From NCBI GenBank assembly GCA_965644265.1, contig OZ286470.1, positions 37,758,001 to 37,822,000 of the forward strand: DNA of 64,000 nt, read 5' to 3'. The position numbers are program-made. How positions within the stretch are numbered: the stretch's first letter is position 1; each line of letters starts with the position of its first letter. Shown here piece after piece: positions 37,001 to 52,000 of this stretch. The DNA comes from Glycera tridactyla. Taxonomy: Eukaryota.

Positions 37001-40000
37001 CACCTAAACTCCCCGCCTAGAATCGTCTTTTTTCTGCATTGGCCACCTCGCCTCGCCGTTGCCTGCCATCCTACCTGCTGCCCCCCCCCCACTTTACTGC
37101 ACTCATCCCTGATAGTTTTCACCAACTGAGCCTTCTCCATCTCATCTTCCCTTGTTGCATTCCAGTTTCCAGTTATTTTCTTCAATCTTCCTGGTTTTTA
37201 TGCCACCACAATTGTTGTGGCAGTTGGAAATCAGCATCTCATGAGAAGACGATGAGCCCTCGTGATGGGAATGGATTTGAAGGTGTAAGAGACAGGACTG
37301 ATAGTTTCCGTCTCACTCTTCTGTATAATTTACCTGCTTCATATGTGATATCAATAAAGTGAATACTCTCCACAATGAGCCCGAAGCGATGTCAAGCTTC
37401 ATAATTCGGTCCAATAACATACCATGTAATTTATTCTCCTCGTATGATATTGATAATGTTCTGTCAAAAACTGCAAGTCCTGTTCACTTACCAACCCCCT
37501 TCTTTCTTTCACCTGTATTGCCCATCTCATCAATTATGTTGTCATAGGATTGACCTGAACATTTGTGTCCACAATGGAAGGGCTCACTCTGAATGAATAT
37601 GATTTTTCTTCAAATCGAAATCGAATCCTGTTATCGGAGAAAATTTCTGACAGGTGGAGAATATCCTCATGCCATTCATATACCAATGAACTGCTGCAAA
37701 ATTGTTCATTTAGAATCTGTGAATTCCTAAATATATGAAGAAACGTCCATCCTCGAATTTGGTGTTGAGATGTCGTAATTCCAGGGTAGGGCAACTGTAG
37801 ATTTCTCACCCATGATAGACTTTTATATGGAACATGAGAAATATTACCCAGTTGTTCGTTAACAGCAGATAATGAATGATTAGAAGAATGAATAGATTAA
37901 GTGACCGCCAACCAAAACTTATTCAAATGATGTATGTATGTCTAGGGATCAGGATCCAGTGGTGCGGGGGGGGGGGAACTCAGACAAACTTTGCTGAATC
38001 AGCCTTTTCACATGTCACTTAATTATGATCTGCTGAATTGGGCAATGAGCGAGTAGAATGACTAATCAACATTTTCATGAATGTGTTTGAATGTGTTTGT
38101 CTCTAAATTTATTTTCAGCTAAAAGTGTGTTTCTGTCAGTGGAATGACGAATCGTGATTCAACAAATTTCAATTGTGCTTGGATTGGGTCATATGGTGTC
38201 ATGTGCAGGCACTGGCGGGCAGTGCCTATTGCCCTTTATTATGCATCCCGGCACTCTTTCCAATGGATTTCTCCCTGCCTCATTCAACTGCTTTATTCAT
38301 AGGACCCGAGACCGCCGGATGCGGCCTCGGGTCCGTAGTTTGTTTTCACGATGTGACTGTGGGACTGTCGTTTACAATGCCATCTTGGAACGCTGCCAAC
38401 ATGATGGAGAATCCTCATTGGCCATTATAGTTGCAAATTCTAACGAACAAACGTAAGCGCAAGTAAAACCCAGAGTGTCTGCAGCTAACTCGCCACTGCA
38501 TATGATTTATTCAAGAGCCACTGACGATTCTAATGAAACCAATGCGAGAGTTGTGCTCTCCAATATACTCATAAACAACACGGATCACAAGAAAAGAGGA
38601 ATTGGCTGTATGTGCGTTATTTACAGTCAAGTTCATGCTTTCTTTTAGTTTCTTTCGAGGCCAATTACACTTTTCCACCACAAGAATAATCGATCCAATC
38701 TCCTGAGGACTGTTCTCATCTCTGCATGCTGAGAAATCATTCATGTGTCAAGCATTCTGCATATCGAGTTACTCCAAAATGGCCTGAAATCTCGTTGCTT
38801 ATAGAGTAGATCTGCTCAAATCAAAATATAGCATGCACATTTAGCAAAGAAAATATCTACCAATGACTGTGATTTATGGATGTGCTCTTTAGCATCTAGA
38901 ATTGATACAAGGTATTTTGCTCTACACTAATAACCTATACCAAGCTTACTAAGTGGAGGTAATGGAGTGAAGACACACGCTCGACTTCGGGGGAGAAAAG
39001 GCTAAAGTATGTCATCTAAGCAGCTTGTTCCGGCAGCAGACCAACCGAAACTACGAGAGTTCCTATCCAAGACAGCTCAGACTACTAGCCAGGTATCGTT
39101 GAAAAGCTCTGAACCTGAAAAAAATGGAATTTGTTCGCCGGTGGGCGATAATTTGTCATCGACTACACCGCGTAATCGGGGTACACTTTGTGAGAACTCC
39201 CCGGGTCCCACCAGTGCCCCACCTCTAAAGAAGTTGTCCATCGTGGTCGATAATCTCCGAAGTGTCTCCCCTCGCTCGGCATCAACCTCACCGTCCCCGT
39301 CACGCGCTGCTGAACGCCGAGTTCTGCGTCCATGCCGTCTACAGCCGTCATGGTCCACTGAGAATATTGCTAGTGCCTCTGCGAACACGTCATCGGAGAT
39401 CACATTCACGCCACCTGCAAACGAAAACCGTAAAAGCAGATCTATGGATAGGTCTGACGGGCAGCTGCCAGAAAAGGCACTTGAATCAAAATCAAACTCT
39501 AATCAACTGGCAATGTCTTTCAATAATGCTGGTGCAATCACAATAACAGAAACGAGCAAGAACGCCAATTTGAATTCGTCTAACACTCAGGATATTTCGA
39601 GAAACCTGTCTTCCCATATTTCTAAGAAACGAGAGCAGATCGTGCAATGTGTGCAGAACAGTGTGGCTAAGTGCAGTGGTTTCTCAATTAGTCCGGAAAT
39701 CGAGTCCCCAAGTAGTGTAATCAAGGGGTCAGCAGACACGGATGATTCGTCTTCCAATAAAACTGGTCCTGATGGTGATCAAACCGAAAGCCATACTGGA
39801 AATATAACTGGTCCAAACAAACAGACAAACAATGATACTTATAATGATTCTGTTGAAATTTACGAGTCTCAATCTCCTGGTACGCAGACTAGCCAGCCCG
39901 CTGAAAATAACAAGTCTGATCCCAAAAATCAATTTCAGTCTTTGAGTCAGTGCCTACCTGGCCTCTTACTCAGTCATCCGGATATTGACCAGGAACTGAT

Positions 40001-49000: not shown

Positions 49001-52000
49001 TCTTGCCTATCAATTGGCCTAGGTCAGCCTCTCTTATCATTTGAGCTTGTTTTCCAATATGTGTCGTATCTATGACTTGTATCTGATTATATGTTGTTTT
49101 ATTATGTTTCTCTTGATACTTATCGCCATTAGACACACCAATTGGTGATGCCTAGTGAAACCGCCTATTGTCTCTGAAACTATACCGTTGAAAACCAACT
49201 GTTCGGTGTTTTCTTTGGAACTACCGACAAGTTATCTACAACATTCCCATGTATTATATTTATATGTTTGTTCGCTGCTGGGCACTCTATCTGATGCCCA
49301 ATTGTGGCTTGATTATGATGCCGCTCTGACCTGGTGTATTGTCGTTTGACAAATTTTGTAGCTTATCTTGAATGATTACTTGGTGGCATGGGAAAACTTC
49401 TTCCTCTAACCCGGTAACTACAGAATTTTAATATTTCTCTGTTTTCCGATTTCACACATGTATTTCTAATGCAAACTTGCCAAACCCTGTCCTAAGATGA
49501 TACCGGCTCATTCAACAAATAGTCTGAAGGTCATACTTGGTATAATGTATACATTGATCATGCTGTAGTTGGTATCTGGGTTTCTCTACCTGTGTACCCA
49601 ACACATATGTATAAATACTGTATATTAGTATATCGATTGATATATCGATTGTTATGCTTTTTTGCTTTCCTCTACTCACTTCCTGTTTCCTGTCCTTTAT
49701 TCAGCATTTATCTCAGTGATGATATCGATGTTGTCAGCAAATTTTTGTGTATTTTTCTATCTCCACGCATTATACGTGTATTCTTAATGGGAAATATGGT
49801 CGTCTGTGGCCACCCAGTCTAGAATGAAATAAAGCTTTTCCAAATCCAAATCCATACCATACTAGTACACTTCCAGAGTATGCACATAGTGTCGAAAAAT
49901 AAATAAAACATGTCCCAAGATGACTTTAGATCATCTCAACCAGAAACTCATAAGAATCCGCTCTCTCATTTATTATACATGTAAACTCAAGTCCACGGCA
50001 AGAATGTTGAAAGTTAGAGGACGTATACTGAAGACGACTACATTTGATTTCTGGACATTGAGGGCCCATCTCCTGGAATTCAATGTTCAGAACATGCCAT
50101 GTAACATCAGGAACATGATTGAATTTGTCAGGAAACGGCAATGAAGATAGGATAAGATGGGATGAGACGAGATTACTTCATTCAAATTCACAAACATGCA
50201 GAAGTCACAGAGACATATCTTTTACGACAAGAATACAGCAATCTAATAAAACATGATCAATAGAACAAAACATGAAACATTGCGTTATTATGATGAAGAA
50301 ATTCTGATAAAGTGACGTATCTTATTCACAGTCTAAACTCAAAGCCTCTTTCTTGATACACGATATTGCAATGCAGGACCAATCATCCCTGACAGACAAA
50401 CATTGGAAACGTTGTTATATTCATAAGCTATGTATGAGATGAATCAAGACAATTCAATCATGATAGTGGCAAATACAATATAATATTTACTGTCTGAACC
50501 CCAAACTTAGTGAGAGTATGTTGTGGTCTACTATATCAGAAGTCCTTTTCAGATACAGGAAAAGAGCCTCTACCAATTTAAAGATATGATCTGATCAAAT
50601 CAACGAGCAATTGATTTAGACCATGACTATCAAAATCATCAAATACCTGGTAGTGTACGAGACGTTCTTACACTTTTGCTGAAGTTAGCTGAATGGAAAT
50701 CGGTTTCTACTTCTTGAGATTATTTCTGTCCCTCCTCTTATAGAGGACATTTCCGTAAACTGACTCCCAGTCGTCCGGAAAAGTGCTCATAGAGATGGAT
50801 AGATTGAAAATAAGAGTGGTGTGATCGAACATGACTTCTGGTATAATTCTCAATGTGACAGAAGATATCCATCAGGGCCTGCTCCCGTATATTGCTGACT
50901 GCCAGTTCCTCGTTTCGCACGCAGTGTCCAGCTATTCGGAGGCGGCCAGTCCCAATTTTCCAGGAGACTCGAGAGAGTCCACATTTTTAAGGATGCCTGC
51001 CTTGCGGGCATCCTTCTTCTTACCACTCTCGTTTGGGATTGCAGTTTAGATGACAAAAAAATTGAATAAATTTCAACATTTTTTGGGGGTAGGAGATTGA
51101 AACTACTCCGATTTCCATGAAATCTTGTATGGTTGTTGTGAAAGCCTGTCTGCTTCATATATATCACTTGGATAGCTCTTTATGAGTTTATCTTGAATGA
51201 AAATGGCACCTACTTCCAGAACTTTCTTGTCAGCGCATGATCGATCTTGGCTCGCCATCAGGTTTGACACCGCTAATGATATGAATACTCTATACCTTTT
51301 TCTGTTGATTTCAAACTGATGTTTCATTGCATTATATGTGTATAAGTTTCAGCATTCTAATCATGGAAGCCATTTGAGCATTTGATCGCACCATTTGTTC
51401 CTTCACAGGTGAGATGTACATATTTCGGTTCAGGTTTGGAGAGTGAGACAGCTCTTATATCAACTGTGTACTGGATAAATGAGGCGCCCACGTGTGGATG
51501 GAAATGGAAATGCAGACGACAGATATCAAACTAATGGTTGAACAGATTGCACGAATCAATTCCTCGGCAGCAATTTGTGTTATATCCAAGCATAAACCTC
51601 GAGAATCCATCGAATATTTGCCAAAAACCTTGGGTGGGTGGGTGTGTGGGTTGCTGGGAAGTGGAGGATGAGGAGGACGACGACAAGGACGAGGACGACG
51701 AGGACGACAACGACGACGATGACGAGGACTAGTACAACAATGACGACGACCAACCCACCTACCCAACCATCCATGTACCTAAATGTCCCACCTACCTACC
51801 CACCCACCTACCTACCTACTTACCTACCCATCCACCGAAACAACCCACCTACCCACCCACCTACCCACCCACCTACCTCATCTGGCATCCTTTTTTCGGC
51901 CTAAAGGCCTAGTTCCATGATAAATTCAAGGCCATTCTGAGCATGTGTGTGTAGTAAGTGTCCAAGCTTCTGAGCCATAAAGCAGGATAGATTCAACTGT

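Follow-up and report, generated by a model that had tools for sequence, protein, structure and literature searches.

An apparent 10.9-kb LINE with an L1-style ORF1, a separate esterase cistron and a reverse-transcriptase ORF, seemingly stitched together at an internal poly(A) seam

Do three long ORFs that follow one another on the same strand belong to one retroelement, or have two elements come to lie end to end? The locus in question lies in a 64-kb window (the whole stretch of DNA analyzed) and is apparently a retroelement of ~10.9 kb with genes for an L1-style RNA-binding protein, a separately encoded lipid esterase and a reverse transcriptase. It apparently consists of two RNA modules stitched together at an internal poly(A) seam. 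In CR1/L2-group elements the SGNH esterase is normally a domain of ORF1p, and inter-ORF spacers are short. This set of parts in one LINE is absent from the excerpted text of earlier surveys of such elements. An ORF scan returned three intact ORFs of 956, 315 and 975 aa, all on the + strand (39009-41879, 41950-42897 and 45862-48789), in keeping with the preliminary description, whose lengths of 956 and ~315 aa also stood; its 979 aa for ORF2 is replaced by 975 aa from the ATG, or 980 from stop to stop. All three have domain or fold support, and chance ORFs are therefore excluded. A putative 5' leader (38943-39008, + strand) was read from the sequence, with the 5' limit kept from the preliminary description.

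ORF1, delimited by ORF scan, composition and a fold model, starts with a Ser-rich, low-complexity region (residues 1-470), followed by long helices, an RRM and C-terminal domain (CTD), and an Arg/Gly-rich tail. The AlphaFold2 model of fragment 470-800 has helices H71-132 and H138-177, then a beta-alpha-beta-beta-alpha-beta unit and then the CTD; pLDDT was 60.6 overall, with ten-residue-block means of 68-89 over model residues 181-320. From this model and Foldseek, a long helical (coiled-coil-like) segment was placed at residues ~540-646 (40626-40946, + strand). The L1-ORF1p-like RRM and CTD were placed at residues ~647-789 (40947-41375, + strand; model pLDDT, Foldseek and tblastn), and composition delimits the C-terminal tail (20% Arg, 11% Gly; 41409-41876, + strand). 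Human LINE-1 ORF1p chains made up all ten Foldseek matches against PDB at E≤0.001 and the top 11 matches listed (2ykp, 2yko, 2ykq, 2ldy and 2w7a; E 1.6e-6 to 1.9e-3). The helical segment falls inside a ~200-column alignment to the human L1 ORF1p trimer, and the fold of residues ~540-789 matches both the trimer chains and the RRM-CTD structure. By predicted fold, ORF1 is an L1-type (type II) coiled-coil/RRM/CTD protein, as had been claimed. It differs from L1-type ORF1p in its 470-residue Ser-rich N-terminal extension and 156-residue Arg/Gly tail, in being followed by a second cistron, and in its sequence, which gave no match in PDB and none in Pfam, Transposase_22 included, at E≤0.1 or E≤1. 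For ORF1, Transposase_22 clusters do appear in the Atlas, but only at 0.88 and 0.85, below Baculo_FP_2nd at 0.92; this is no more than a lead. Type II ORF1p (coiled coil, RRM, CTD) also occurs in the CR1, L2 and R1 clades, according to extracts of Metcalfe & Casane 2014 (PMC4120745).

ORF1 and the second ORF lie in different frames, parted by a stop codon and an ATG-free gap of 70 nt (41880-41949, + strand; sequence reading), the same gap that had first been noted. The second ORF (315 aa; start context gccATGG) was identified from Pfam, relatives, hhalign and fold. Its Lipase_GDSL match has an E value of 3e-4, below the curated cutoff. The catalytic set S66, G110, N147, D271 and H274 is complete, with S66, G110 and H274 invariant and N147 and D271 nearly invariant in the alignment. 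The model reached a pLDDT of 90.5; its best Foldseek match, among 89 at E≤0.001, was PAF-AH (1vyh_A, E 3.1e-6). Comparison with LINE type-IV esterases by hhalign gave a probability of 94.9% (E 4.6e-8, 171 columns). The product is thus predicted, from sequence and model, to be an SGNH esterase with a complete catalytic set. Among its relatives (n=78 at E≤1e-3), none has more than 46 residues before the position aligned to the start of the window esterase, and 77 are no longer than 338 aa; in seven, the match reaches the first 8 residues of the query and begins within 12 residues of the relative's own N-terminus. Sequence comparison thus supports a conserved separate cistron, free-standing in 78/78 relatives found, and the free esterase of the preliminary description is upheld.

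LINEs of the CR1/L2 group with an esterase-type (type IV) ORF1, such as ZfL2-1 and CR1, were reportedly described by Kapitonov and Jurka in 2003. The window locus shares with them an intact Ser/Gly/Asn/Asp/His SGNH set, a homologous esterase of PAF-AH/TAP-like fold, and an esterase followed downstream by an ORF2 that combines APE and RT and has a tail other than poly(A). Its broader ORF2 neighborhood also contains 14 loci with the canonical esterase-in-ORF1 arrangement, in which ORF1 is 578-783 aa long and its GDSL match begins between residues 196 and 490. Unlike type IV ORF1 LINEs, the locus has its esterase in a cistron of its own with no coiled coil ahead in the polypeptide, also encodes an RRM-bearing ORF1p, and separates esterase from ORF2 by ~3 kb rather than ~0.3-0.45 kb. 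A canonical type IV ORF1p (coiled coil and esterase in one polypeptide, no RRM) was ruled out, given the separate ORFs and RRM-type ORF1. No esterase-containing ORF1p in RepBase had an RRM, as stated in a part of Schneider et al. 2013 (PMC3905857).

ORF2 (+ strand), established by ORF scan, Pfam, PDB sequence matches and relatives, is preceded by a pyrimidine-rich leader of 316 nt (45546-45861, + strand) with a CpG o/e of 0.21 and two ATGs only, which start uORFs 4 and 9 codons long. It contains an APE endonuclease (about 45958-46596, + strand; Exo_endo_phos PF03372, E 9.2e-6, and PF14529, E 5.8e-6) followed by a reverse transcriptase (about 47443-48183, + strand; RVT_1 PF00078, E 3.4e-33), and its PDB sequence matches are L1 ORF2p and R2. 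The best of 203 relatives (P0001) has 41% identity at 98% query coverage, and the ORF2 start agrees with that of relatives of 971-978 aa. The 3' UTR (1.06 kb, 48790-49853, + strand) ends with AATAAA (49828-49833) and then GCTTTTCCAAATCCAAATCCA, a TCCAAA-type repeat tail that stops at 49853 with no poly(A); such a non-poly(A), short-repeat 3' end is characteristic of the CR1/L2 group. Folding of the final 100 nt gave no significant structure (z -1.13). Self-BLAST of the window returned internal spacer repeats only, with no long terminal repeats and no second copy of the element. With APE then RT in ORF2, no LTRs and a short-repeat tail, the locus looks like an APE-type non-LTR retrotransposon. 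In the ORF2 tree, the window and P0001-P0004 form a clade with support 100, and this clade lies in the half that holds esterase-ORF1 elements (unstarred support 85-92), which is indirect evidence for placement in the CR1/L2 group.

Between esterase and ORF2 lie 2,964 nt (42898-45861) with no ORF of at least 100 aa from an ATG. The preliminary description had seen here a non-coding spacer of ~2.95 kb, with a single LINE-type tail at 49828-49853. The interval is indeed ORF-free and the tail is real, but the interval is no plain spacer and contains a second 3'-end signature. Its first part (42898-45518, + strand) resembles a 3' UTR by sequence, repeats and ATG count: it is T-rich and ORF-free, has 64 ATG triplets, and holds, all upstream of an A-run, a tandem repeat of 135-bp units (43467-44277), a 28-bp repeat present twice (44251-44314) and a ~284-bp repeat present twice (44730-45290). 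An ATTAAA polyadenylation-signal hexamer (45496-45501, + strand) is followed after 17 nt by an uninterrupted A27 (45519-45545, + strand), which a homopolymer scan found to be the sole A or T run of at least 12 in the entire window. Because of this signature inside the spacer, the locus can be read as a head-to-tail join of two RNA-type modules, A up to the A27 and B from the ORF2 leader onward. The two copies have the same orientation and meet directly, as in chimeric retrocopies. The evidence supports 45496-45545 as the point where the copy of a polyadenylated ORF1-esterase RNA meets a complete ORF2 unit, and the seam geometry, including the ATG-poor leader, fits a copied mRNA 3' end. The ORF scan and Pfam placed no RT in module A and no ORF1 in module B.

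The explanation that we favor, at roughly even confidence, is one composite APE-type tricistronic LINE formed from two RNA-level modules by 5' template switching; the same estimate covers, jointly, its placement among CR1/L2-like (Jockey-superfamily-like) LINEs. Module A (about 38943-45545) would have been copied from a polyadenylated RNA with two cistrons, comprising ORF1, esterase, a 2.6-kb UTR and poly(A), and module B (45546-49853) would be a complete ORF2-only unit with leader, APE and RT, 3' UTR and CR1-style tail. RT copying ORF2 RNA would have run to the 5' end of this template and then jumped onto the poly(A) tail of ORF1-esterase RNA, a case of 5' switching or chimeric retrotransposition that would have left the A-run as its scar. 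The composite could then have spread as a unit by way of the module B 3' end. In such an element ORF1p would package the RNA, and the esterase, probably translated by termination-reinitiation across the ATG-free gap, would supply an activity directed at lipids or membranes, which in canonical CR1/L2 elements resides within ORF1p. Because 64 AUGs intervene, ORF2 is out of scanning reach and would therefore require an internal start or a separate transcript starting near the seam.

The composite is supported by three ORFs that are intact, co-oriented and abutting. CpG o/e (0.75-0.82) and GC3 (0.38-0.42) are similar across them, and their CpG o/e exceeds that of the flanks (0.53-0.57); this shared profile is weak evidence for a single composite element. 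No target-site duplication was found for A, B or A plus B (exact 8-mers; 10-14-mers with 1 mismatch). Its absence around the whole element counts against the composite, as weak negative evidence because the 5' boundary is uncertain; the dissimilarity of the module A and module B 3' ends also counts against it.

Further support comes from relatives. The closest relatives of the esterase fall into a single 90% cluster (P0121, P0199, P0200 and P0201) whose members differ at roughly 1-3% of positions (global match counts 765-783 over 783-792 residues). The NCBI contig with P0201 measures 10,385 bases, and so does the longest contig of P0001. Since this exact agreement concerns the top matches of adjacent ORFs, the two very likely share one contig of about element size. 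Thus, as judged from equal base totals alone, the esterase-ORF2 pairing almost surely recurs on one contig in a distant organism, which speaks for an architecture and against accident. Against the composite, contigs of the other relatives looked up were too short for both genes (0.9-3.7 kb for 16 esterase relatives, 3.9-4.7 kb for ORF2 relatives P0002-P0004), and word-based searches of a large protein set found no ORF1 relative. Note also that, if the linkage dates back as far as protein identities of 29%/41% imply, an ancient scar can hardly account for an A27 this pure and an ATTAAA still intact.

Four LINEs on MAG-bin contigs (L053, L035, L071 and L033, the last partial) bear on the spacer. 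ORF1 is homologous to that of L053, L035 and L033 (tblastn, E 6e-10 to 1e-4) and aligns with that of L071. Like the window locus, all have an L1-type ORF1 and a multi-kilobase T-rich, ORF-free spacer with tandem repeats before ORF2. These spacers measure 5,530 nt in L053, 5,989 nt in L035, which carries 142-145-bp tandem repeats, and 5,406 nt in L071, with 114-133 ATGs; ORF1 and ORF2 DNA of the three is ~70% identical, but the spacers do not align. Inter-ORF spacers of kilobase scale thus exist where ORF1 is homologous; literature searches turned up no description of them in LINEs. Unlike the window locus, the four lack an esterase cistron and any A-run or A-rich tract within the spacer, their ORF1s have only 321-351 aa, and their ORF2s belong to another clade; grouping these ORF2s with the window clade was rejected by an AU test (31-row subset, p 3.8e-6; group named after seeing the tree). 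The missing A-rich tract and the different ORF2s weigh against the composite. We nevertheless argue, from the shared contig, the free-standing esterases and the long spacers with homologous ORF1, that the pairing is a family trait. Both options offered at the outset, a new architecture or joined elements, were thus partly right: the pairing very likely recurs with a free esterase, and the seam supports a junction.

It is quite possible, if on balance improbable, that the join is unique to this locus, two different retroelements having become neighbors without traveling together. The partners would be a poly(A)-tailed non-autonomous ORF1-esterase element or mRNA retrocopy and an ORF2-only CR1-group LINE, brought together by one chimeric insertion or two independent ones. 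ATTAAA with a pure A27 would then be a true mRNA 3' end precisely at the boundary, and the purity of the run fits a recent event. Module B appears self-sufficient in leader, ORF2 start and tail; its 3' end is unrelated to that of module A (no similarity by self-BLAST), ORF1 homologues accompany a different ORF2 clade, and ORF1-less CR1-group elements are common, according to a portion of PMC13343379. Chance adjacency arising twice is unlikely, however, if the relatives share a contig; neither module alone is bracketed by a target-site duplication, the ORFs are uniformly intact and alike in composition, and poly(A)-type and CR1-type elements would require different mobilizing machinery.

An old unitary tricistronic LINE is unlikely. 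Here the A-run would be a homopolymer at an internal polyadenylation site, arising when polymerase or RT slipped, or through copy-choice involving an isoform polyadenylated too early. Long ORF-free tandem-repeat spacers are stable in LINEs with a homologous ORF1, the esterase-ORF2 linkage reaches a distant relative, and T-rich composition extends across the spacer and module B UTR. But the 64 kb have no other long homopolymer, the placement of the run 17 nt past ATTAAA has a chance of a few percent by rough, uncomputed estimate, the relatives' spacers have no A-rich tract, and the sharp drop in ATGs, from 64 before it to 2 in the leader after, fits a 3' UTR meeting a 5' UTR. That two unlinked repeats were misassembled at the homopolymer is very improbable: homopolymers and repeats are frequent mis-join points and the window already has one N gap (3730-3923), but the modules are co-oriented with an exact 3'-end to 5'-end boundary, every ORF is intact, and an independent contig very likely carries the same pair of genes.

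For the composite, precedents exist in chimeric retrocopies and 5' switching. Sense-oriented chimeras, in which a full-length RNA is fused 5' to a LINE, are described in parts of PMC2104539 and PMC13174262, and 5'-end switching in part of bioRxiv 10.1101/2022.11.04.512097; cases in these extracts include U6/L1, Alu/L1, MINE of Magnaporthe and SolRTE 5' cycling. As in these, a complete sense RNA copy is joined straight to a LINE 5' end with an internal tail at the join. Here, in contrast, a 6.6-kb LINE-type coding module takes the place of the small RNA or host mRNA as 5' partner, the LINE portion has its full length, the search for flanking direct repeats gave none, and a distant organism seems to have the same pairing. 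The esterase as a separate accessory ORF of a retroelement likewise has counterparts, since stand-alone GDSL/SGNH ORFs occur in the Vesta LTR elements and Athena PLEs of bdelloids (PMC5408684, in part) and reportedly in Ngaro/DIRS elements (PMC9210276); unlike the window LINE, these are LTR, PLE or YR elements. A Ngaro-like esterase elsewhere in the window is distant from that of the LINE locus (BLASTP E 4.7; hhalign probability 36%). An internal A27 is atypical for a CR1-group element, and Zenon is the sole member of that group reported with poly(A) in the portion of PMC13343379 cited above.

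The locus is most likely a composite LINE, in which a polyadenylated RNA copy carrying ORF1 and an esterase ORF (module A, ~38943-45545) was joined by its 3' end to the start of an element that has ORF2 only (module B, 45546-49853) and is provisionally grouped as CR1/L2-like. As the preliminary description had stated, three long intact ORFs are co-oriented; on the + strand lie ORF1 (39009-41879, 956 aa), the esterase ORF (41950-42897, 315 aa, in a reading frame different from that of ORF1) and ORF2 (45862-48789). ORF2 had been given as 979 aa; the ORF is intact, and its length is corrected to 975 aa from the ATG, or 980 aa stop-to-stop. 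The 70-nt gap between ORF1 and the esterase ORF was found again and contains zero ATG triplets, and the esterase ORF begins in the context gccATGG. No 2A (NPGP) recoding motifs were found. The interval between the esterase ORF and ORF2 is 2,964 nt long. It had been described as a non-coding spacer of ~2.95 kb, and it does lack any sizeable ORF, but it is not a plain spacer: it holds 135-bp tandem units (43467-44277), a 284-bp duplication (44730-45290), a 28-bp repeat and, on the + strand, an ATTAAA hexamer (45496-45501) lying 17 nt ahead of an uninterrupted run of 27 A residues as read from the sequence (A27, 45519-45545). A27 is the sole A or T run of at least 12 nt within the 64-kb window, which has one N run (3730-3923). 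ATG triplets number 64 in the spacer upstream of A27 versus 2 in the 316 nt between A27 and the ORF2 ATG, where they open uORFs of 4 and 9 codons. The 3' UTR of ORF2 is 1.06 kb and ends with AATAAA followed by GCTTTTCCAAATCCAAATCCA at 49853, without poly(A).

ORF1 had no Pfam match and nothing relevant in the PDB by sequence or profile; only a fold search linked it to PDB entries. Residues ~565-800 are homologous to the ORF1s of three fetched loci (tblastn E 6e-10, 3e-5 and 1e-4). An AlphaFold2 model built on a four-sequence alignment (pLDDT 60.6 overall, with ten-residue-block means of 68-89 over model residues 181-320) consists of long helices, then a beta-alpha-beta-beta-alpha-beta unit and then a small alpha/beta domain. 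When this model was compared with the PDB using Foldseek, all 10 matches at E≤0.001 were human LINE-1 ORF1p trimer or RRM-CTD chains, and the next match listed was the L1 ORF1p central domain. Because of the model fold and these matches, ORF1 is assigned as an L1-type (type II) ORF1p by predicted fold, in agreement with the earlier suggestion. It also has a 470-residue Ser-rich extension and an Arg/Gly-rich tail. Word-based searches of a 5.8-billion protein set, at near and shorter lengths, gave no relative of residues 470-800 at E≤1e-3 or 1e-2; note that such searches require shared 5-mers, so an empty result is no proof that ORF1 relatives are absent. Kinship to esterase-type (type IV) ORF1s was rejected, as profile-profile comparison returned the two as unrelated. 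Among language-model neighbours of residues 625-800, 16 of 30 were Baculo_FP_2nd (PF25298) clusters (best score 0.92), with Transposase_22 clusters at 0.88 and 0.85. The ORF1 of one LINE locus (L053) also has a weak Baculo_FP_2nd Pfam match (E 0.086). L1-type ORF1p and baculovirus FP-like domains may be related. ORF2 carries APE and RT domains, and its sequence matches in the PDB are L1 ORF2p and R2 proteins.

The 315-aa ORF is an SGNH esterase. Its Pfam GDSL match is weak (E 3e-4, under the curated cutoff), a sequence search of the PDB gave nothing relevant and a profile search gave weak SGNH matches (E 0.003). The residues Ser66, Gly110, Asn147, Asp271 and His274, assigned as catalytic, are conserved among relatives. 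A Foldseek search with the predicted structure (pLDDT 90.5) gave 89 matches at E≤0.001, among which PAF acetylhydrolase and GDSL lipases ranked first. When the profile of the 315-aa protein was aligned to that of esterase domains from canonical LINE ORF1s, the probability was 94.9% (E 4.6e-8). Searched exhaustively with HMMER, a set of 1.84 billion representatives yielded 78 relatives at E≤1e-3, 20 of them at E≤1e-10. None of the 78 has more than 46 residues before the position matching the start of the window esterase, which upholds the description of a separate ORF, and 77 are ≤338 aa. The lone longer relative (P0121, 784 aa) has an N-terminal esterase followed by a low-complexity tail of 480 aa, which gave no match to the window spacer. 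For seven relatives, matches reach the first 8 residues of the query, beginning ≤12 residues from their own N-terminus, and a PIY-type motif directly after the protein's own Met is common to the relatives inspected. Canonical esterase-type ORF1s, found in 14 loci (13 of 25 scanned upstream ORFs, and L006), are proteins of 578-783 aa in which the GDSL match begins at residue 196-490. By these sequence comparisons, the esterase is a conserved separate gene, and together with at least 78 detectable relatives it makes up a family.

The preliminary description had offered either a new architecture or a join. The A27 seam favors a join, and an apparent esterase-ORF2 pairing in a distant relative favors a unit. 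On the side of the join, the arrangement of ATTAAA, 17 nt and A27 is laid out like the 3' end of an mRNA that was copied, the density of ATGs shifts abruptly at A27, module B is complete on its own, and the 3' ends of modules A and B are unrelated. RNA folds of these 3' ends were no better than those of shuffled sequences. The fusion would have occurred by template switching of reverse transcriptase, a process documented for chimeric retrocopies (PMC2104539, PMC13174262); 5' switching has also been described (bioRxiv 10.1101/2022.11.04.512097). No target-site duplication was found around module A alone, module B alone, both together or a small poly(A) retroposon postulated within the spacer. 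An 11-mer with 1 mismatch was dismissed as a target-site duplication because it sits inside the intact esterase ORF.

The window has one copy of the element, with no other copy elsewhere in it, and evidence on the pairing of the two modules is thus indirect. Four sequences, which differ at ~1-3% of positions by global match counts, make up the cluster of best esterase relatives, and one of them (P0201) is on a 10,385-base NCBI contig. For the best ORF2 relative (P0001; 41% identity, 98% query coverage), the longest contig reported is also 10,385 bases. From these equal figures, P0201 and P0001 are taken to share one contig, roughly as long as the proposed element. An esterase relative is also carried by a contig of 9,717 bases. 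A further 16 esterase relatives are on contigs of 0.9-3.7 kb and are uninformative on pairing. CpG o/e and GC3 are alike across the three window ORFs and unlike the flanks, which is weak evidence for a unit. If esterase and ORF2 are paired in a distant relative, as appears to be the case, it is probably the composite, not just the window locus, that propagates.

LINEs with a comparable layout bear on both sides. A scan of genome contigs with the ORF2 alignment, using a bacterial and archaeal collection, gave 600 pattern matches, of which 523 encode animal-type LINE ORF2s; the best 80 of these 523 were kept. The loci look like host DNA binned into MAGs, with Sedimenticola or Thiodiazotropha in many of the bin titles. 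L053, L035 and L071 (and L033 in part) carry ORF1s homologous to that of the window. In the first three, ORF-free spacers of 5,530, 5,989 and 5,406 nt, containing 114-133 ATGs, lead from ORF1 to ORF2, an arrangement that counts for a unit. These long-spacer families have an L1-type ORF1, a 5.4-6.0-kb spacer and an ORF2 of 1,154-1,186 aa. The three loci are ~70% identical in ORF1 and ORF2 DNA and their spacers do not align, which argues that the ORF1-spacer-ORF2 layout was kept as the families diverged. The L035 spacer contains 142-145-bp tandem repeats. The long-spacer relatives have no A-rich tract, which weighs against a unit, or at any rate favors a join, at the window locus. Their ORF2s are placed elsewhere than the window ORF2 in a quick IQ-TREE tree (77 rows), and uniting them with the window clade was rejected by an AU test (p 3.8e-6; 31 rows, LG+G4) in which the group was named only after the tree was seen. 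None of the 80 best loci contains the free-esterase family (the esterase HMM gave only L006, E 0.0015) or is close to the window element in DNA; the best segment of L080, a degraded fragment, has 45% identity.

The pure A27 conflicts with an inherited composite, as it is unexpected if the linkage dates back as far as protein identities of 29% and 41% imply. An improbable alternative would remove this conflict by having the modules rejoined in every round of retrotransposition. Two messages would be made, a polyadenylated ORF1-esterase mRNA ending at the internal ATTAAA site and an ORF2 RNA starting in the 316-nt leader. After copying the ORF2 RNA, reverse transcriptase would switch to the poly(A) tail of the other message, carried in the same particle, so that each new copy would be re-stitched with a fresh pure A-run. 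Such a cycle would also explain the AUG-poor leader and the expression of ORF2 across a spacer that scanning cannot cross, and would account for an RRM-type ORF1p and a free esterase occurring together in one LINE, the first such case known. For the favored composite, the esterase would be reached by reinitiation after ORF1, and ORF2 would require either internal initiation or a transcript of its own. ORF1p may bind RNA, and the esterase may provide a lipid-directed function as proposed for ZfL2-1 (PMC3905857).

Type II and type IV ORF1s both occur in CR1/L2 lineages (PMC4120745). Among the RepBase esterase-containing ORF1ps considered by Schneider et al. 2013 (PMC3905857), none has an RRM, and these authors asked whether RRM and esterase are redundant or mutually exclusive. 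Unlike those proteins, the window encodes an RRM-type ORF1p and an esterase 70 nt apart in one polyadenylated unit, and this pairing on module A holds whatever the status of ORF2. Given both functions on module A and the free-esterase family, RRM and esterase are not mutually exclusive at the element level. A literature search (Repbase reports and supplements were outside its scope) found no described LINE with an RRM-type ORF1 and a separate esterase ORF, and no kilobase-scale LINE inter-ORF spacers. If the composite moves as a unit, LINEs can acquire a whole protein-coding 5' module via template switching, and expression of ORF2 is possible downstream of an AUG-dense spacer several kilobases long, making this a natural test case for LINE ORF2 translation start. 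Repeat annotators that assume short inter-ORF gaps would split such elements.

Several other features were recorded in the window. An antisense RT fragment (50502-50811, minus strand), 650 nt past the element tail, is kin to the ORF2 family (P0001 residues 503-625, E 6e-10). An apparently intact Ngaro/DIRS-like element (26509-34926, minus strand) contains a gag-like ORF (32349-30631), an RT (30848-29073; RVT_1 E 1e-7) and an ORF judged by eye to be tyrosine-recombinase-like (29199-28186), all on the minus strand, with split direct repeats of 98.7-98.9% identity (34926-34689 versus 27460-27223, and 28088-27455 versus 27142-26509). A GDSL esterase ORF on its 5' side (34769-33864, minus strand, E 2e-5) is no close match to the LINE esterase. 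A 1,455-aa open frame (21240-25607, minus strand) has a marginal RNase H-like match (RVT_3, E 4.5e-4) and is overlapped by a 512-aa frame at 20347-21885; this region is probably another retroelement. A satellite-like tandem array of ~1.4 kb (8569-9996; period ~83 bp from stepped self-matches) is also a site of strong GC skew (-0.41). The two window ends share a 3.2-kb duplication of 96% identity (1-3207 versus 60633-63835). The retroelement cluster at 19-51 kb sits between paralogous blocks (14348-18426 versus 52822-56055) with 72-78% identity and ORFs without Pfam matches. A 184-bp inverted repeat of 93% identity (19397-19580 versus 35620-35438) flanks the region containing the 1,455-aa ORF and the Ngaro-like element.
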